Shown here one piece after another: positions 4,938-62,667 of a DNA stretch of 64,000 nt. Position numbers and translations under genes: made by a program. Location: assembly GCF_009936135.1 (NCBI RefSeq), contig NZ_CP047901.1, positions 60,181 to 124,180 on the forward strand. Reading direction: 5' to 3'. Source of the stretch: Candidatus Chazhemtobacterium aquaticus (GTDB lineage Bacteria > Patescibacteriota > Microgenomatia > UBA1400 > Chazhemtobacteraceae). Within the stretch, counting starts at the first letter, position 1. Every line of letters begins with the position of its first letter. The notes beneath the pieces are model-generated. The model made no database searches and was not told the DNA's origin. It was given only the letters and a program-made list of their open reading frames with translations.

Positions 4938-5501
4938 TTACCTTGTTATCTCTAGCCTCTCAACCAACTCATTAGTTACTTTACCAATCACCTCCTCAAT
5001 TATAACTATCTCATTCTTCATAAACCTGTTTAGAACATACTCCTCGCCAATAATCCTCCTATCCTCCCGATTATCAACTCCAACTCTAACTCGCCAATAC
5101 TCATCACTACCCAACATCAAAGTTATGTTATTCAAGCCGTTGTGATCTTTAGGTCCTCGTCCTTTTTGAATCTTGTACTCTCCCAATCGAATGTCTAAAT
5201 CATCATGAATCACATAAATATCTTCACTCTCAACTTTATAAAAACTTGCAACCCTTTGCACCGACTCACCCGATCTATTCATATATGTTTCCGGCTTAAT
5301 CCATATCACCTCGTTCTCCCGACAAACCATAGCCTTCATCTTCTCTTCTCGCTTAAACTCACCACCCACCATTTTATCCACCACCATATAACCAACGTTA
5401 TGTCGTGTCATAAGATACTTTTCTCCCGGATTACCCAACCCAACCACCAATCTCATTGCTATAATACTGACTAGTAATACTCTGATTATAGCTTTACCCA
5501 C
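4938..5501 (-). CDS. pth: peptidyl-tRNA hydrolase
   Basis: MRLVVGLGNPGEKYLMTRHNVGYMVVD matches the Pth N-terminal signature. True start may be the internal Met at about 5456. Confidence 0.85.
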   Translation of the reverse strand: MGKAIIRVLLVSIIAMRLVVGLGNPGEKYLMTRHNVGYMVVDKMVGGEFKREEKMKAMVCRENEVIWIKPETYMNRSGESVQRVASFYKVESEDIYVIHDDLDIRLGEYKIQKGRGPKDHNGLNNITLMLGSDEYWRVRVGVDNREDRRIIGEEYVLNRFMKNEIVIIEEVIGKVTNELVERLEITR

Positions 5502-16260: not shown

Positions 16261-16809
16261 TCAACCCCTACTACGCCATCGGCCACCACCAAAAAATAAA
16301 TCAGAAATATCAAGCTTAGCCACGTGTAACCACCACTCCTTAAACAAGGCATAAATCATTAATATACTCAAAATTGGCCACGGTGCCGATACTAGCAAAT
16401 CTATTTCCAAAAAGCTTGGCAACACCATTTTTAACAAAAACAGTCCAGTCACCATATTGGGAAATATCAACAATAACCACTCTTTTTTCGTCAACCCATA
16501 CAACACTTGACCAAACATTCTCCACCCAAATACAAGCATAAATATATACCACACGGTGTCCCTCTGCCAGTACCATACTACATATGTAGCTATCGATACC
16601 AAGAAAACTAAATCCATCCACTTATCCCATTTCTCATAAGAATCCCTCTTCCAGCCCATTCGCTCAAACATATCTCCATCAACTGTATCCAACAATGTAT
16701 TAACTATTATTCCAACTAAGGGGTTTATCCATACCCATCCCACGGCCAATAATCTAAGTAAAGACCACCACTTCCACAATGTACTTTTCTTTTTGATAGA
16801 CTTTTTCAT
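16261..16809 (-). CDS. hypothetical membrane protein
   Basis: Hydrophobic helices. Weak DxxDG-like segment. No confident family. Confidence 0.3.
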   Translation of the reverse strand: MKKSIKKKSTLWKWWSLLRLLAVGWVWINPLVGIIVNTLLDTVDGDMFERMGWKRDSYEKWDKWMDLVFLVSIATYVVWYWQRDTVWYIFMLVFGWRMFGQVLYGLTKKEWLLLIFPNMVTGLFLLKMVLPSFLEIDLLVSAPWPILSILMIYALFKEWWLHVAKLDISDLFFGGGRWRSRG

Positions 16810-28542: not shown

Positions 28543-28592
28543 GGCAACATTCTAACCTGTTTCACAACAACTGTGAACCAACTCAAATTATG

Positions 28593-28666
28593 TAGCAGGG
28601 GCGAGGATCGAACTCGCGACCTTGGGTTTATGAATCCCATGCTCTAACCAACTGAGCTACCCTGCC
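28593..28666 (-). tRNA. tRNA with CAT anticodon (Met; could be initiator or lysidine-modified Ile2)
   Basis: Reverse complement folds as GGCAGGG-TA-GCTC-AGTTGGTTA-GAGC-A-TGGGA-TTCATAA-ACCCA-AGGTC-GCGAG-TTCGATC-CTCGC-CCCTGCT-A. 74 nt. CCA not encoded. G1-U72 wobble. One A-A mismatch at the base of the anticodon stem. Confidence 0.8.
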
Positions 28667-28878: not shown

Positions 28879-29134
28879 TGCGGGCGGAAGGTCGGTATCT
28901 TGAGAGGCTCAAATGGGCCCTTTTGTGAGTAATCGCAATCGAAAACCTGGCTATATCGGTGAAACCCACGAAATAAGTGGGCAACCCCGAGGGAAGTCGT
29001 AATTGACCCCGTAGAGACTACACGCCGGGCTCCCCAATAAATAAGGGATGATGATATAGTCCGACACTCCAAGCAATTGGAGATAACCGTGCATAATCTC
29101 TCTTAACCGGGGTTCAACTCCCCGGGCCCGCAAC
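28879..29134 (+). ncRNA. ssrA: probable tmRNA (ssrA); structured RNA with tRNA-like 3' domain
   Basis: 3' end CCGGGG-TTCAACT-CCCCGG-GCCCGCA-A-CCA resembles the tmRNA T-arm, acceptor strand and encoded CCA (E. coli ssrA ends GGGTTCAACTCCC...CCACCA). 5' TGCGGGC at 28879-28885 pairs perfectly with GCCCGCA. Local G+C is higher than the surrounding intergenic DNA. No full tRNA cloverleaf is present. No G3-U70 pair or tag frame could be verified. Confidence 0.4.
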
Positions 29135-29143
29135 CAAAATCAT

Positions 29144-40713: not shown

Positions 40714-43299
40714 ATGGCTTCAAAATCTCGATCAAAAAAAACTACCCCTCCCTCTCCGACACCAAAAACCAAGCAATCTCGAAAGATAAAGTTGTCTCAT
40801 TTTCTTTCCCTATCACGCCTCCGGCTTCCTCATCCTCAACTCCATCTCCCCCACCTCCAGCGTAAACACATAATAATCATCAGTATTCTGATAGCTACCT
40901 TACTCTTCACAATTGGCTTTATCCTCTTTAAAGATGTCCCCAATCCCACTTCTCTATCCAAACGTCCTGCTCCCGTATCAACTCAAATTCTTGATCGCCA
41001 TGGCCAACTTCTCTACGAGATTTACACCGACCAAAACCGTACTCCAGTCTCCATCAAAGACTTACCCGATCATCTCACCCAAGCTACCATCTCCATCGAA
41101 GACAAAAACTTCTACTCCCACCATGGCCTGGACTTAAGAGGCATTGCCCGAGCCGCTTTCAAAACCCTCACTGGCCAGCGTCTCGAAGGCGGATCCACCA
41201 TCACTCAACAATTGGTCAAAACTGCTCTGCTTAATGATCCGTCCCGCACCATCTCACGTAAAATCAAAGAGGCAGCTCTTGCCATTCTCACCGAAATTAT
41301 CTACTCCAAAGACCAAATTCTAGAGATGTACCTCAACAACGTACCCTACGGTGGCACTGCTTACGGCATCGAAACAGCAGCCCGTCAATACTTCAATAAA
41401 TCAGCCAAAGACCTCACTCTTGCAGAAGCCACCCTACTTGCCGGACTTCCCCAAGCCCCCACCCGTTACTCGCCCTTTGGTGCTCACCCCGAACTAGCCA
41501 AACAACGCCAAGAACAAGTCCTTCGCCGTCTCCACGAAGATGGATATATCACCTCAGAAGAACTCGAGACTGCCAAGAATGAATCACTAAATTATGCCAG
41601 CGTTAAATCAACCATCAAAGCTCCCCACTTCGTCCTTTGGATCAAAGACCTTCTCGTCGACCGCTACGGCGAAGATTTAGTCAACCTTGGTGGACTTAGA
41701 GTTACCACTACCCTAGACCTTAATCTGCAAGAATACGCCCAAGCCTCCCTATCAGCCGAAGTTGACAAGTTAGAACGTCTCAAGGTCGGTAATGGAGCCG
41801 CCCTAGTCACCAAGCCAAAAACCGGAGAAGTGCTTGCTATGATCGGCTCAAGAGACTACTTCGACAAAGAACATGACGGAGCTGTCAATATCACCCTCCG
41901 TTACCGCCAACCAGGATCCTCAATCAAACCCCTCAATTACGCCGTCGGACTCCTTAAGGGTTGGCCAACCTCCACCATGTATCTTGATATACCCACTTGT
42001 TTCACTCAGTCTGGCCAAAAAGCATATTGCCCAAAAAACTATGACAACACCTGGCACGGGCCGACCCAAATGCGCTTCGCTCTTGGTAACTCCTACAACA
42101 TCCCTGCAGTTAAACAACTTGCCCTCAACGGTCTTGACGCTATGATCGCCACTGCCTCAGCCATGGGCATCACTGGCTGGGACAATCCCGATCGCTTTGG
42201 TCTCTCACTCACTCTAGGCGGTGGAGAAGTCCGCATGATTGACATGGCAGTCGCCTTCGGCGTCTTCGCCAACTCGGGCGTCAAAGTACCCCTTAATCCA
42301 ATTCTAAAAGTTGAAACATATACCGGACAAGTTCTTGAAGAAACCAATCTTGAAACCATCGCCGACCTCGCCTCAACCTCGCCCCTCAACTGGGATGATT
42401 TCTGGAGCAAACCACGCTCATCCAACAACCCAACCACTCAAACCACCTCCGTTGATCTGGGAATTGCCTCACCCTATTCCAGTTTCTTTGATCGCTTACT
42501 TGGCAAAAAACCCGGCAACCAAACTCTTAACATCACCATTCCCGAAACTCAGGTTACCACCGTCCTCCCTGAAGAAGTAGCCTACATCATCTCCCATATC
42601 CTCCTCGACAACAATGCCAGGGTTGGCGCCTTTGGATCAAGCAGCGAGCTCGTCATTCCTGGACATACTGTCTCCGTCAAAACCGGAACCACCAACGATC
42701 TACGTGACAACTGGACCATTGGCTTTACTCCCGACTATCTCGTCACCACCTGGGTCGGCAACAACGATAACACCTCCATGAGCTACGTTGCCTCAGGTGT
42801 TACCGGCGCCTCGCCCATCTGGAACGATATCATGCGTTTTGTCCTAAAAGACGAAAAAGACCGCTTTCCCACTCGCCCCCAAGGTATCGCCGATGCCCAA
42901 GTCTGTACCCTAACTGGTCTGCTTGCCTCTCCCGACGCCCCTTGTGACACCCGAAACGAAATCTTCATTAAAGATCACCTCCCTCTCCCCTCCACCACTT
43001 TACCCACTCGCAAGCAAATCTGGATCAGGCGGGACACCAACCAACCCCTTCTTCCAGGCGAAGAGGTTATTGACCTCAATCTTGAAGAACACACCGTTGT
43101 CTCAGACCCCTTCACTCAAGAATTCTGCCTTGACTGCGCCTATCCCCAAGAAACCAAGCCCAACCCTGACAATCCCGATGAACAAATTCCCACGGGCAAA
43201 ATCTCCTACCCCACCTTCATCATCAACTACGATCTCTTCAAAGCTAAAAACATCACTCCCACCTCCTGGATCAATACCACTCAACCACCCATAAACTAA
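40714..43299 (+). CDS. class A penicillin-binding protein (bifunctional transglycosylase/transpeptidase)
   Basis: GT51 motifs EDKNFYSHHG and GGSTITQQLVK. Transpeptidase motifs SSIK, SYN and KTGTTND. N-terminal TM anchor. Confidence 0.9.
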   Translation: MASKSRSKKTTPPSPTPKTKQSRKIKLSHFLSLSRLRLPHPQLHLPHLQRKHIIIISILIATLLFTIGFILFKDVPNPTSLSKRPAPVSTQILDRHGQLLYEIYTDQNRTPVSIKDLPDHLTQATISIEDKNFYSHHGLDLRGIARAAFKTLTGQRLEGGSTITQQLVKTALLNDPSRTISRKIKEAALAILTEIIYSKDQILEMYLNNVPYGGTAYGIETAARQYFNKSAKDLTLAEATLLAGLPQAPTRYSPFGAHPELAKQRQEQVLRRLHEDGYITSEELETAKNESLNYASVKSTIKAPHFVLWIKDLLVDRYGEDLVNLGGLRVTTTLDLNLQEYAQASLSAEVDKLERLKVGNGAALVTKPKTGEVLAMIGSRDYFDKEHDGAVNITLRYRQPGSSIKPLNYAVGLLKGWPTSTMYLDIPTCFTQSGQKAYCPKNYDNTWHGPTQMRFALGNSYNIPAVKQLALNGLDAMIATASAMGITGWDNPDRFGLSLTLGGGEVRMIDMAVAFGVFANSGVKVPLNPILKVETYTGQVLEETNLETIADLASTSPLNWDDFWSKPRSSNNPTTQTTSVDLGIASPYSSFFDRLLGKKPGNQTLNITIPETQVTTVLPEEVAYIISHILLDNNARVGAFGSSSELVIPGHTVSVKTGTTNDLRDNWTIGFTPDYLVTTWVGNNDNTSMSYVASGVTGASPIWNDIMRFVLKDEKDRFPTRPQGIADAQVCTLTGLLASPDAPCDTRNEIFIKDHLPLPSTTLPTRKQIWIRRDTNQPLLPGEEVIDLNLEEHTVVSDPFTQEFCLDCAYPQETKPNPDNPDEQIPTGKISYPTFIINYDLFKAKNITPTSWINTTQPPIN

Positions 43300-58422: not shown

Positions 58423-58557
58423 TTACGCCTTCCTACGGGGAGCCAATTGGAACAACGGATCCAATGCCGGTGTCTTCACCCTCAACCTGAACAATACGCC
58501 CGACAACTCTGGAAACAACAATATTGGCTTTCGTTGCGCCGTCTCCCCCTAAGTAAT
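58423..58557 (+). repeat. DGR template repeat (TR), 135 bp
   Basis: Matches the reverse complement of 60272-60406 at 127 of 135 positions. All 8 mismatches fall on TR adenines. TR carries AAC codons in the target reading frame. Confidence 0.9.
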
Positions 58558-58672
58558 CAAACCTGCGAGATCTCCAGATCATTGATCCACCCATCAATCA
58601 CTGGAGCCGGGCACCATCCAATTACCAGCCTAAGACTCGTCATCCACTTTAAGGAGACAGAGATAGTAAAAG

Positions 58673-58709
58673 AGTAACCAGTCTCGGGATTAATCAACGG
58701 TTACTCTTT
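58673..58709 (+). promoter_or_regulatory. perfect 9-bp hairpin in the TR-RT spacer (DGR RNA structural element candidate)
   Basis: agagtaacc - 19-nt loop - ggttactct, between the TR 3' end and the RT start codon. Confidence 0.4.
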
Positions 58710-58721
58710 TACACTTCTATC

Positions 58722-59855
58722 ATGTTTGACCGCATCATCTCTTTTAACAACCTGCTTTCCGCCTATTACAAAGCCAGAAGACACAAACGTTTCCAAAAAC
58801 CTCTCCAAATCTTCGAGTTTAATCTCGAAAAAAACCTCATCAACCTCCAAACCAATCTCGCCACCAATCAATACCGCCCCAGAAAATACCACCGCTTCAT
58901 CACCTTTGAACCCAAAAAACGTCAGATCTCAGCCCCTGTTTTTATCGACCGCATCCTCCATCACGCCATCATCACCGTTATTGAACCCATCTTTGAAAAC
59001 GTTTTCATTAACCACTCCTTCGCCTGCCGCAAGGGTAAGGGCACCCACTTTGGTATGCTCCAAGTCTCCCAAGTCTATCACCAGATCCGTCAGCATCACC
59101 CCCGCTTCTACTGCCTTAAATGCGACATCAAAAGCTATTTCGCCAGTATTAATCATCAGATTCTTCTCCGCCTGCTATCAAAACACATCTCCTGCCCCAA
59201 AACCATCAAATTACTCACCACTATCATCACCAGCTACCACGACACACCCGGCTGTGGCATCCCCATCGGCAATCTTACCTCGCAGCTATTCGCCAATATC
59301 TACCTCCACCCTCTCGACCTGTACTTAACCAAAACCCTTAAACTCAAAAACTACTTTCGTTACATGGATGACTTTCTTGTCATCTCTCCCGACAAAGAAT
59401 ATCTCCTTGCCCTCCGTCGTCAAATCAACACCTTTTTAACCACCAATCTCAAACTCACCCTCCACCCCAAGAAAAACAATATCTTTAGGGCTGATCGTGG
59501 CCTGGACTTCCTAGGCTATCTCATCAAACCCCATCAAACCACCATCAGAAAAAAGACCCTCCGCCGTTACAAAAAACGTCACAAAAAACGCCTCAAGAAA
59601 CTAAAAACCTTAAAACACCTCCTAAAAAACCACAACCAGCCCCAGCAACTCTCCCTCTTCGCTCCCCCACAAAATCTAACCGACCCGGATCTATCAAACC
59701 AAATTACCGCTCTCCAACAAAAACTTCGCTCCTCCCGTAATTCCTTCAAAGGCTTCCTCCGTTACTCCACCCACCAACGTCTATCTTCTGGTGGTGTAAC
59801 TATCAACAACATCACCATCCCCAACATCTTCCCCAAGAAACCCAACAAGCCCTAG
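58722..59855 (+). CDS. DGR-type reverse transcriptase
   Basis: RT motifs, including YMDD in FRYMDDFLVIS. DGR-specific IGxxxSQ motif (IPIGNLTSQLFANIYL) in place of the group II intron QG. 377 aa with no maturase or endonuclease domains. TR lies immediately upstream. Confidence 0.9.
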   Translation: MFDRIISFNNLLSAYYKARRHKRFQKPLQIFEFNLEKNLINLQTNLATNQYRPRKYHRFITFEPKKRQISAPVFIDRILHHAIITVIEPIFENVFINHSFACRKGKGTHFGMLQVSQVYHQIRQHHPRFYCLKCDIKSYFASINHQILLRLLSKHISCPKTIKLLTTIITSYHDTPGCGIPIGNLTSQLFANIYLHPLDLYLTKTLKLKNYFRYMDDFLVISPDKEYLLALRRQINTFLTTNLKLTLHPKKNNIFRADRGLDFLGYLIKPHQTTIRKKTLRRYKKRHKKRLKKLKTLKHLLKNHNQPQQLSLFAPPQNLTDPDLSNQITALQQKLRSSRNSFKGFLRYSTHQRLSSGGVTINNITIPNIFPKKPNKP

Positions 59856-60190
59856 AGCCTACTCACCCTCATCCACGCATTTAGCAATCTCCCAATCTCA
59901 TTTATTTTCTCCGCTACTACCCCGTATTTCTTAATCGACAAAAACCCTACATCCTTGGCTACTCTCACATATACCCGAAACAAATCAAGATTTACTGAAA
60001 TCTTCTTCTGTTCCGCTCTCCGATCAGGTTTACTGTTAGCAATAACCGTTAGTCTAATCATTTCCATATTAGTTTTTAGCAAAGCATTTGATAACAAAAA
60101 CCGTTGCGCTTTAGGAAACCTCGCCACCATCCGATGGGTATACAAGTACAGGTCATATATTTTCTGAAAGATTATCAGCTGATCAATCAT
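59852..60190 (-). CDS. avd: Avd-like accessory variability determinant (four-helix-bundle, TIGR02436-like)
   Basis: 112 aa from the internal Met, with GGGGGTGAG SD-like sequence 6 nt upstream. IYDLYLYTHRMVARFPKAQRF...L pattern is typical of Avd / 23S-IVS four-helix-bundle proteins. Directly downstream of the VR-bearing gene. Converges on the RT with a 4-nt overlap. Confidence 0.65.
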   Translation of the reverse strand: MIDQLIIFQKIYDLYLYTHRMVARFPKAQRFLLSNALLKTNMEMIRLTVIANSKPDRRAEQKKISVNLDLFRVYVRVAKDVGFLSIKKYGVVAEKINEIGRLLNAWMRVSRL

Positions 60191-60215
60191 ATTTTTCTCA
60201 CCCCCCCAAACCGAA

Positions 60216-60238
60216 GGCTCCGACTCAAGGTCGGAGCC
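60216..60238 (-). promoter_or_regulatory. perfect 9-bp hairpin (ggctccgac-tcaag-gtcggagcc) downstream of the VR; candidate DGR homing hairpin and/or transcript terminator
   Basis: Located 34 nt after the VR end, between the target stop and the avd start. No U-tract follows on the transcribed strand. Confidence 0.5.
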
Positions 60239-60271
60239 AGATAACAAGATTTTAAAAGATAGCTACGCCAA

Positions 60272-60406
60272 ATTACTTAGGGGGAGACGGCGCAACGAAA
60301 GCCAATATTGCTGCGCCCAGAGTTGCCGGGCGTATTGTTCAGGCTGAGGGTGAAGACACCGGCATTGGAACCGTTGTTCCAATTGGCCCCCCGTAGGAAG
60401 GCGTAA
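60272..60406 (-). repeat. DGR variable repeat (VR), 135 bp, at the 3' end of the target gene
   Basis: See TR. Encodes ...FLRGANWNNGSNAGVFTLSLNNTPGNSGRSNIGFRCAVSP*. Differences from TR give N->S, D->G, N->R and N->S, plus 3 silent changes. Confidence 0.9.
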
Positions 60407-62667
60407 TCAATATTACTCGACCCTCCCTGATAATATCTACCCACCCTCTTATTCAAATCCCAACTACTATCACTCGGTTTCAGTACGTCATAACTTAAAA
60501 CACCATAATCACTCACACTCGACCAATCAACCCAACTTGTACCCCCTCCCACCGGCTTATTAGGCCCCCTCACCACATCATCCGTCCATTCCCATACATT
60601 ACCCGCCAGGTCCCAGATCACCTCGCCATTAGATAAATAATGAGTTCGTCTTTGGGTGGCACCATTGCCACAGGTTGGATCAACATCTTTAGTGACCGTG
60701 CCATAGCAGCCTTGGGAATCGTCAGTCGAAGCTTGAAGCGCCAGAGCCGGGCCGTTATCATTATGACCCGCCACCAAATACTGACTTCCCGGACTATTAC
60801 CACACCCTGTCCCGTTTAAAGCACACCAGTTACTCCCCAACCTCTCCAGATTTCTCGCTATCGTCATCCACTCGTTATTAGTCACCAAATGCCACCCCTG
60901 CGTCTGGCAATAAGTCCTGGCATCTACCCCCGATCCGCCAGCATTCTGAGCAATTCTGGCAATCGGTGCCCCTTGAGGCGTTGACACTACATCTCCTCCC
61001 ATATCCTCTATACATCTACACCCCGACAAAATATTTCCCCACGTATCATAACCAGTGTTGCATGACGCATAAGCACCGCTTGCCGTATCCCCCACCCCGT
61101 CACCATCAGCATCACACTTAGCCTGATACTTCATCACACAAAAATCACTCGTTCCATATAGCGGATCACCTGGTACATGAACAAAACCACTAGGACACGC
61201 CACCTGAGCATTAGCAGGCTCTAAAGACTGTGTTTTACCAAACTTAACCGCCGCACCAATTACATCCACATACACCTCGAACAAAGTACGATCATAAGCA
61301 TAAATCAGCACATCATCCATCTTACCGTTAAAGTAATTAGGCGTCGCCCCTGCTCGACCAACAAACACCGACCCCCCCGTTACCGACCATAAAGACAAAG
61401 CCGGCGATGACACCAGTCGGCCGTCTACATAAAAACTGGCATTGACCCCATCATATGACACCGCCACATTAGTCCACTCTCCCGCCGATATACCAGCCCC
61501 GCTGCTCGTCACCACCGACCCTCCCACTGGCCCGAAGCTCAACTCCCCTCCGCTCGTCATCTGGAAGGTATAACCGTTCGTGTGAGGCTGCGACACAATC
61601 GCATAATTACCCAAGGAAGACACATAAACCCAAGCCGAGATCGTCATCGCCCCGCCTAACTGAAACCGTCCGTGATTACCCAGATCAACATAGTCATCAC
61701 TTCCGTCAAAAAGTAAGGCATAATTGTCATTACCCGCTACCCACTGGCTGTTATCACTCGGGAAATTCACCAATGCCGCTCTGGTATAGTTTTCCAGCCT
61801 GTTCATCGTCTGCAAACCAGAACCATCATCAAAACCTAATCTCACTACCGGCCTGCCTCTTTCCATCGCATAAGCCAACGACCCTTCATCTCTCGTCCCT
61901 GAGAATACTCTTACTTCATCAATCGAACCGTCCAGATAACCAGTATAACTGCCAGCCCCCGTTTTTGTTACACCTAAATAAAAATCAGCCGCCGTATCAC
62001 TCAGTGCCGTCCCCACCGACGAAACACTCCCTTCTCTAACCCCATTCACATACAAATATATGGTACCCGGACTGGTTGCGTTATAGTAACCCTGCAACAA
62101 GTACCAAACATTGGGCAGTATCTGCGTCGTTCCTGTTGCTGTCTTAATCGCCGCCGCTGTCCCGTCAGGCGACACCTGGAACTTGGGCCATACCCTGCCG
62201 TCTGCATCAGCCTGAATTATCAACCGATAACTCCTTATATCAAGCGTCTCATCCCACTTGGCCACCACCGTCTGAAACGCACTCTCAGATGCTGATACCG
62301 TATCAAACTTCACCCACGCCTCTACCGAAAAACTCCCTGTCTGGGAAAATACAGCCGTGTCCAGAGCTATCCCGTAATCATCAACACCATCAAACTCAGC
62401 TTTTCTCCCATATTTGGCTTCCGCCCCAATCCCCGTCTTCGTCCCCGTCACCCCACTCCCTGTCGTTGTCAACGTCAAGTCATTAACCCCCACCCGATCC
62501 TTAATCAAAGTCGTTCCATCCCCCTGAACGCTCTCAAAATCGTAATAAACCACCGGCTCGTCCCACACACTCCAATCAGCCCACACTACCCCCGCCCAGC
62601 CCAAAAACCACCAAAAAACCAGCAAACATCCCAACACCTTCCCGATCCTATTTTTCCCACATTCCAT
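60277..62667 (-). CDS. DGR target (variable) protein: signal peptide, two LamG/concanavalin-like domains, C-terminal FGE-sulfatase/C-type-lectin-fold domain carrying the VR
   Basis: N-terminal hydrophobic MECGKNRIGKVLGCLLVFWWFLGWAGVVWA. LamG-like blocks (FSVEAWVKFD..., MTISAWVYVS...). FGE hallmark GNVWEWT, ending in GFRCAVSP with the VR in the last 43 codons. Confidence 0.85.
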   Translation of the reverse strand: MECGKNRIGKVLGCLLVFWWFLGWAGVVWADWSVWDEPVVYYDFESVQGDGTTLIKDRVGVNDLTLTTTGSGVTGTKTGIGAEAKYGRKAEFDGVDDYGIALDTAVFSQTGSFSVEAWVKFDTVSASESAFQTVVAKWDETLDIRSYRLIIQADADGRVWPKFQVSPDGTAAAIKTATGTTQILPNVWYLLQGYYNATSPGTIYLYVNGVREGSVSSVGTALSDTAADFYLGVTKTGAGSYTGYLDGSIDEVRVFSGTRDEGSLAYAMERGRPVVRLGFDDGSGLQTMNRLENYTRAALVNFPSDNSQWVAGNDNYALLFDGSDDYVDLGNHGRFQLGGAMTISAWVYVSSLGNYAIVSQPHTNGYTFQMTSGGELSFGPVGGSVVTSSGAGISAGEWTNVAVSYDGVNASFYVDGRLVSSPALSLWSVTGGSVFVGRAGATPNYFNGKMDDVLIYAYDRTLFEVYVDVIGAAVKFGKTQSLEPANAQVACPSGFVHVPGDPLYGTSDFCVMKYQAKCDADGDGVGDTASGAYASCNTGYDTWGNILSGCRCIEDMGGDVVSTPQGAPIARIAQNAGGSGVDARTYCQTQGWHLVTNNEWMTIARNLERLGSNWCALNGTGCGNSPGSQYLVAGHNDNGPALALQASTDDSQGCYGTVTKDVDPTCGNGATQRRTHYLSNGEVIWDLAGNVWEWTDDVVRGPNKPVGGGTSWVDWSSVSDYGVLSYDVLKPSDSSWDLNKRVGRYYQGGSSNIDYAFLRGANWNNGSNAGVFTLSLNNTPGNSGRSNIGFRCAVSP

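Follow-up and report, generated by a model that had tools for sequence, protein, structure and literature searches.

The hairpin that follows the variable repeat (VR) of the diversity-generating retroelement (DGR) in phage BPP-1 is needed for efficient homing, and it is the structure of the stem, not its sequence, that matters (Guo et al. 2011, PMC3240598). The GRNA tetraloop of BPP-1 is sequence-critical, and phage DGR hairpins have GC-rich stems of 7–10 bp situated 4–34 bp from the VR (PMC3240598). In DGRs as a whole, inverted repeats rich in GC follow the initiation of mutagenic homing (IMH) sequence in 34% of elements, and in some elements the IMH and its counterpart in the template repeat (TR), IMH*, are identical, so that recognition must reach downstream (Wu et al. 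2018, PMC5758913). Here we describe a DGR at the end of a 64,000-nucleotide stretch of contig NZ_CP047901.1 (hereafter the window, to which all coordinates refer) from Candidatus Chazhemtobacterium aquaticus (Microgenomates), a tiny groundwater bacterium with a closed genome of 801,504 bp, for which the genome paper mentions neither a reverse transcriptase (RT) nor a DGR (PMC7143001). The element is chromosomal and recently active, a canonical DGR of the type found in the candidate phyla radiation (CPR), ordinary though previously unremarked. The region between its VR and its avd gene is probably the 3′ target-site module, in which the VR flank would mark the recipient and a hairpin would aid homing.

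The cassette is complete, with the TR, a spacer and the RT gene on the + strand, and avd and a VR-bearing target gene on the − strand. The 135-nt TR (58423–58557, +), which closes with a GC-rich segment devoid of A and then TAAGTAAT, aligns without gaps to the VR (60272–60406, −), the 3′ part of which likewise consists of an IMH-like A-free segment (60280–60305) and then TAAGTAAT (60272–60279). A 164-nt spacer (58558–58721, +), which presumably forms the structured 3′ portion of the DGR RNA, leads to the RT gene (58722–59855, +; 377 aa; Pfam RVT_1, E = 4e-24; GenBank QHO63095.1). DGR-type RTs carry the motifs (I/L)GxxxSQ and YxDD; the translation contains IGNLTSQ and YMDD, the gene adjoins the TR, and the NCBIfam group II RT model scores the protein under its cut-off. 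The avd gene (59852–60190, −; 112 aa) is convergent with the RT gene, and the two overlap by 4 nt in the palindrome CTAG. The target gene (60277–62667, −; 796 aa; GenBank QHO63097.1) encodes a signal-like N-terminus, two LamG/ConA-like domains (Pfam Laminin_G_3, E = 5e-44) and, at residues 582–793, a C-terminal FGE-sulfatase domain with the C-type-lectin fold (27.3 bits against a cut-off of 23.3). This domain carries the VR, which sits at the 3′ end of the gene and spans its stop codon. GenBank labels the three products ‘reverse transcriptase/maturase’, ‘hypothetical protein’ and ‘LamG domain-containing protein’, respectively.

For comparison, related loci were collected by RT scans (27 from genomes and 65 from metagenomes). 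The clade used throughout comprises about 20 loci with RT identities of 51–63% plus one, L028, at 93%; comparisons of the VR flank cover the 16 clade loci for which that flank lies on the contig.

Over the 135 ungapped positions the TR and VR differ at eight, all of them adenines in the TR (8 of 35 A), and no further TR-like copy occurs in the 64-kb window. The final 39 nt of the two repeats are identical and the sequences part only after AGTAAT, in agreement with a preliminary description of the window, which had noted that no difference between IMH and IMH* is visible inside the repeat. That description went on to call this unlike the phage paradigm, which is correct for BPP-1, but identity of the two is documented among DGRs generally; because Wu et al. 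report such elements (PMC5758913), the missing difference does not exclude DGR membership. Taken alone, identity at the 3′ end is weak evidence, because 26 of the 39 nt (60280–60305, −), including the GC-rich GCGCCGTCTCCCCC at 60280–60293, contain no A and could not have been mutated. Just upstream of this A-free segment, relatives carry mutations at the three A's of AATATT.

Evidence of transfer comes from the closest relative. The TRs of the window and of L028 are nearly identical and differ at a few non-A positions (T/C in one column, CC/TT in another). Each VR mirrors the non-A variant of its own TR, while the adenine positions have diverged independently, with 8 changes in the window and 17 in L028. 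Information has therefore passed from TR to VR since the two lineages split, and the DGR is recently active. The TR of L028 also has an extra T just 5′ of TAAGTAAT that its VR lacks, a single case, which suggests that the 3′ limit of transfer lies upstream of this T, in or before the GC-rich GCGCCGTCTCCCCC. Separately, the VR of the window contains a perfect 8-bp palindrome, ATTGGAAC-CGTT-GTTCCAAT (60364–60383), which was completed by one A-to-T change relative to the TR (GGATCC to GGTTCC) and is probably incidental.

Because the TR and VR are identical up to AGTAAT, the recipient would be marked only by sequence 3′ of the VR. In the clade this sequence has a constant layout: the A-free GC-rich segment and the TR-shared AGTAAT are followed by 4–6 variable nucleotides (usually 5), the box GTAGCTATC, two or three WATCT repeats, a GC hairpin in most loci, a T-rich run and often the avd ATG. 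In the window the box occupies 60258–60266 (−), 5 nt 3′ of AGTAAT (60272–60277), and three WATCT repeats (60257–60261, 60247–60251 and 60239–60243, −) lie between it and the hairpin. The box is exact in all 16 clade loci, with one copy per locus, despite the divergence of the RTs and of the five intervening bases, and its single occurrence in the other 76 loci is at an unrelated place. The TR flanks do not contain it and show no conservation among themselves. Two loci separate the VR from avd: in L033 and L002 the avd gene lies 2.4 kb and 1.5 kb away, respectively, the box still adjoins the VR, and the regions upstream of avd lack it. Because it stays at the VR when avd is distant, the box belongs to the VR end and not to avd expression. 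The earlier expectation that a directionality cue must sit in the flank is thus borne out to the extent that an invariant arrangement, AGTAAT-N5-GTAGCTATC, occurs at the VR flank only.

The repeats extend beyond the clade. In the 45 nt 3′ of the VR, self-similarity at a lag of 8 nt reaches z = 7.7 over 34 non-redundant loci with RT identities of 30–60%, and no such periodicity is found in the same loci in the TR flanks (z = −2.3) or in 140 flanks of other long open reading frames (ORFs) (z = 0.0). Across the RT family the VR is followed by two to four short direct repeats of 8-nt period (for example, L015 at 5153–5200, L053 and L081; 60239–60271 in the window), and their unit varies by sub-clade, with ATCT in the window clade and TTTGATTA, CTTGTTCC or ACTTTGTA elsewhere. 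We found no description of a flank box or of 8-nt phased repeats in the searchable literature, and this VR-specific combination is the part of the locus that may be new. For the directional cue, the box together with the repeats is the best candidate and offers a plausible physical basis.

The window holds three exact copies of GTAGCTATC against 0.2 expected by chance. The two others, at 16586–16594 (+) and 40890–40898 (−), lie inside long ORFs with neither ATCT repeats nor a hairpin and were judged to be chance occurrences. In IMG/VR viral contigs the pattern GTAGCTATC-N(2–14)-WATCT-N(2–5)-WATCT gave 111 matches, approximately the chance number and none near an RT or Avd gene, so the motif is no signal of phage DGRs in general. 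In the sub-clade of L034, L035 and L042, the VR-like copy beside the box, hairpin and avd lacks a matching TR upstream of the RT gene. L042 has instead a second, unrelated TR/VR pair (643–756 and 218–331); another avd-like gene separates the TR of this pair from the RT gene, and the box-adjacent repeat copy of L042 keeps the AAC AAC AAT codons typical of an unmutated template.

The hairpin, GGCTCCGAC-CTTGA-GTCGGAGCC followed by TTCGGTTT (60216–60238, −), has arms at 60216–60224 and 60230–60238 and a loop at 60225–60229. All nine pairs are perfect, seven of them G-C. The end of TR/VR homology (60272) and the stem (60238) are 33 nt apart, so the hairpin begins at the 34th nucleotide beyond the homology, where the preliminary description had put it. 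Its predicted DNA folding energy is −11.5 kcal/mol, which over the local 46 nt corresponds to z = −5.2 and was reached in none of 200 shuffles. The 64-kb window contains five perfect hairpins of at least 8 bp, compared with 3.0 expected in shuffles; the VR-flank hairpin is the most GC-rich of them and arises although the strand composition disfavours G-C self-pairing.

Across the clade the site of the hairpin is constant, directly 3′ of the last ATCT repeat, and 12 of the 16 loci have one there, with four different stem sequences: GGCTCCGAC in the window and L028, TTGCTCCGA in L034, L035 and L042, TTGCCAC in L030, L031 and L038 (TGCCAC in L029 and L045), and (C)AGCGC in L002 and L037. In the clade alignment, 93% of cells pair, against 21–48% for slid controls, and three pairs have changed on both sides, in a test that rests on 3–4 independent stem types. 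In this alignment, pairing is conserved while sequence varies, and the hairpin is thus selected for but not indispensable. Loops in the relatives are 3–6 nt long and often GNA triloops (GAA, GGA, GCA, GTA), none being GRNA. L042 (2680–2705, −) shares the stem TTGCTCCGA/TCGGAGCAA with L034 (2720–2745, −) and L035, but its 6-nt loop, TGTGAG, is the exact inverse of their CTCACA, a flip of the kind expected from in vivo extrusion or recombination of an inverted repeat. A conserved GNA-triloop mini-hairpin, GCGTAGC, was considered and rejected: it folds in six loci, but its 5′ GC is not conserved (GTGTAGC and CTGTAGC elsewhere).

The likeness to BPP-1 noted in the preliminary description therefore holds for position, stem and compensatory changes, and fails for the loop, which is the 5-nt CTTGA in the window and not GRNA. 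Both elements share the order target gene, VR, GC-rich IMH-like segment, GC-rich hairpin and avd; the 9-bp stem and the 33-nt distance fall within the 7–10 bp and 4–34 bp of the phage hairpins; stem sequence varies with pairing kept; and the 3′ boundary of transfer lies inside or upstream of a GC-rich segment. Unlike BPP-1, which has a (GC)14-IMH and five positions at which IMH and IMH* differ, the window has no such difference within the repeat, and its 33 nt before the hairpin hold the invariant box and short repeats. BPP-1 is arranged avd-TR-brt on one strand and resides in a phage, whereas the TR-RT unit of the window is inverted, convergent with avd, and chromosomal in a CPR bacterium.

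In host and context the element resembles the CPR set of Wu et al. (PMC5758913) and DGR clade 2 of Roux et al. 2021 (PMC8144416), with which it shares a Microgenomates host and a cellular setting. It also has, as does the CPR set, Avd on the strand opposite the RT, a VR domain of the C-type-lectin/FGE-sulfatase type and identical IMH and IMH*. It departs from the TR-(avd)-RT order, ‘B3’, of 90% of that set, being TR-RT-(avd)-(target), and this gene order is one more of the many DGR architectures reported. Nanoarchaeal DGRs have GRA triloops in hairpins inside the target ORF (Paul et al. 2015, PMC4372165); relatives of the window have GNA triloops after the VR, the window itself has CTTGA, and its hairpin is intergenic. 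Group IIC introns (PMC3240598) offer a further parallel, as an RT system related to retroelements whose DNA target lies beside a terminator-like GC hairpin, but in the DGR nothing is inserted: sequence upstream of the hairpin is replaced by cDNA from a separate template. The two features that had been singled out as unusual, identical IMH/IMH* and the post-VR hairpin, are both real, and both belong to documented DGR variation.

The orientation of the target relative to replication is also of interest. Throughout the window (1–64000) GC skew is extreme, with each 4-kb bin between −0.35 and −0.58, and the + strand is C-rich whatever the gene direction, including in the + strand RT gene. This is the chromosome-wide strand disparity already known for Ca. 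Chazhemtobacterium aquaticus, which has been attributed to near-unidirectional replication (PMC7143001). The target gene would be co-directional with the fork, because it lies on the G-rich strand, and the strand complementary to the cDNA would therefore be on the lagging-strand template. In a 2026 reconstitution study, co-directional targets were edited best, and a stem-loop was proposed to keep the target open (PMC12875486); by analogy, we infer that this orientation effect may apply to the element in the window.

The protein encoded next to the hairpin had been described as Avd-like, and two curated hidden Markov models now identify it as Avd. NCBIfam NF033474 (DivGenRetAVD) matches with 89.8 bits against a cut-off of 80, covering residues 5–108 of the 112-aa form and the full model (1–104 of 104), and Pfam PF22296 (bAvd) matches with E = 8.9e-21 and 74.8 bits against a cut-off of 40. 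The related family 23S_rRNA_IVP remains sub-threshold (19.8 versus 33.8), the suggested match to TIGR02436 did not materialize at E ≤ 0.01, where NF033474 was the only match, and sequence and profile searches against the PDB gave none. Avd proteins have a four-helix-bundle fold and assemble into a basic pentamer to which the RT binds.

The start codon follows from the homologues. All 17 clade homologues begin with M[IT]D[QH]LI[IV]FQK at an aligned ATG, and 13 of them have an in-frame stop at most 20 codons upstream of it, with a TAA two codons upstream in L028; GenBank likewise annotates 112 aa. Judged by this alignment, ATG 60190 is the true start of avd. The 131-aa ORF from TTG 60247, suspected from the beginning to be a wrong call, is an artefact in view of the conserved ATG and the upstream stops. 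The G-rich Shine–Dalgarno-like sequence reported 6 nt upstream of the ATG is present (GGGGGGGTGAG, 60197–60207, −, as read in the sequence), but only the window and L028, which has AGGGAG at that position, possess one; the AT-rich relatives have no comparable sequence.

The TR-RT spacer was compared among nine clade loci (the window, L028, L029, L030, L031, L033, L002, L003 and L037). RNA fold prediction gives a hairpin at 58572–58606, the sequence of which differs between loci; the TR, too, thus has a hairpin nearby. A box, ATTACCAGCCT at 58621–58631 (ATTAC-AGC-T), is invariant in all nine, and two stems 3′ of it covary, 10 of their 11 predicted pairs showing compensatory changes. This pattern suggests that the spacer is probably the structured part of the DGR RNA, which would recruit RT-Avd and hold the priming site. 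By eye, the spacer alignment contains no conserved segment complementary to the VR-flank box.

Together, these features fit the following model. The TR-spacer-RT unit (+) would be transcribed, and the RT, with the 112-aa Avd, would copy the TR RNA into cDNA with random bases opposite adenines. This cDNA would then take the place of the VR, in the 3′ end of the target gene with its LamG and C-type-lectin domains. The A-free GC-rich segment at 60280–60305 would be the IMH equivalent and hold the 3′ limit of transfer, and the recipient would be marked by the GTAGCTATC box 5 nt away, then by the WATCT repeats and then by the 9-bp GC hairpin. Whenever the sense strand, the putative lagging-strand template, is single-stranded, this hairpin would form and hold the site open for annealing of the cDNA; in RNA it probably also terminates or attenuates, in a leaky manner, transcription from the target gene into avd. 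A more specific version is offered tentatively and at rather less than even confidence: that the functional IMH of the clade is the bipartite AGTAAT-N5-GTAGCTATC, with its second half found only beside the VR, and that the phased repeats of the wider family are a recruiting cis element.

Several observations weigh against a homing role for this flank. Three of the 16 clade loci (L003, L048 and L033) keep the box and repeats with no convincing hairpin; the preliminary description had held that loss of the hairpin from orthologous loci would speak against it, and this is in part what is seen, with the hairpin weak or absent in those three and kept in most. The 5-nt loop is not the sequence-critical 4-nt GRNA of BPP-1, and in L034, L035 and L042 the box adjoins a VR-like copy that has no cognate TR on the contig. 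The direction of replication derives from skew only. Finally, a run of 6–8 T follows the hairpin in most relatives, as in an intrinsic terminator.

The last point leads to the reading that the hairpin is only a rho-independent terminator or attenuator of the target gene, with no part in retrohoming, and that its conservation reflects control of transcription. A scan for the terminator consensus does flag it (9-bp stem, seven GC pairs, and a tail, TTCGGTTT, that just passes with five T in eight), in the wider RT family 12 of 19 hairpins in the VR flank have at least five T in the next 8 nt, and the loops are heterogeneous instead of GRNA. However, avd begins 25–45 nt past the hairpin on the same strand, a distance that appears to leave no room for a promoter of its own, and because of this an efficient terminator would silence avd. 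Beyond this case, almost no gene of the genome is followed by a strong perfect hairpin, the total of five in the 64-kb window comparing with the 3.0 expected, and terminators follow the IMH in only a minority of DGRs (Wu et al., PMC5758913). The two roles can also coexist, as Guo et al. themselves suggest (PMC3240598). Although terminator and homing roles cannot be told apart computationally, we consider a pure terminator unlikely.

A second alternative takes the GTAGCTATC box and ATCT repeats as a promoter or operator for avd, or as another transcription signal, instead of a homing signal. In 11 loci they do lie 45–75 nt upstream of the avd ATG, and TAGCTA, read from the sequence, is palindromic over 6 bp, like many operator half-sites. 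Yet in L033 and L002 the box is directly 3′ of the VR with avd kilobases away, a scan of the VR-flank region found no sigma-70-like promoter, and a transcript begun in the box region would run into the hairpin and its T-tail. We tried this explanation and rejected it as very improbable.

That the inverted repeat of the hairpin arose by chance and serves no function was already disfavoured and is scarcely credible, because, although a few perfect hairpins of this length are expected in 64 kb (the 3.0 of the shuffles), no local 46-nt shuffle of 200 folds as well, differing stems with compensatory changes recur at the same position in 12 of 16 clade loci, and the hairpin is the most GC-rich of the window in a strongly G-poor strand.

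Elsewhere in the window, a region at 28879–29136 (+) is probably an intron-split tRNA-Met/Ile2 gene. Rfam identifies a group I intron at 28900–29083 (79 bits, E = 2e-18), and the flanks of the intron, which spans approximately 28910–29091, resemble tRNA halves. In silico removal of 28910–29091 yields a tRNA with anticodon CAU in ARAGORN, whereas the unspliced DNA yields none. The modelled intron has U before its 5′ splice site and G as its last base. An intact tRNA-Met(CAT) adjoins on the other strand (28592–28666).

The locus adds an unannotated, active DGR to the record of a closed CPR genome, in a chromosome whose extreme strand asymmetry fixes the orientation of the target relative to replication. 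How the cDNA replaces the VR but never the TR is an open mechanistic step, and DGR integration ‘remains unknown’ (PMC12875486). For DGRs with identical IMH and IMH*, the comparison yields a testable candidate for the recipient mark, namely a 9-nt invariant box at fixed spacing with phased short repeats, which could easily be mutated or transplanted in existing reconstituted Escherichia coli systems. If the bipartite reading of the flank is true, the phased repeats could set the direction of retrohoming by recruiting to the recipient either the Avd-RT-cDNA complex or some host factor.

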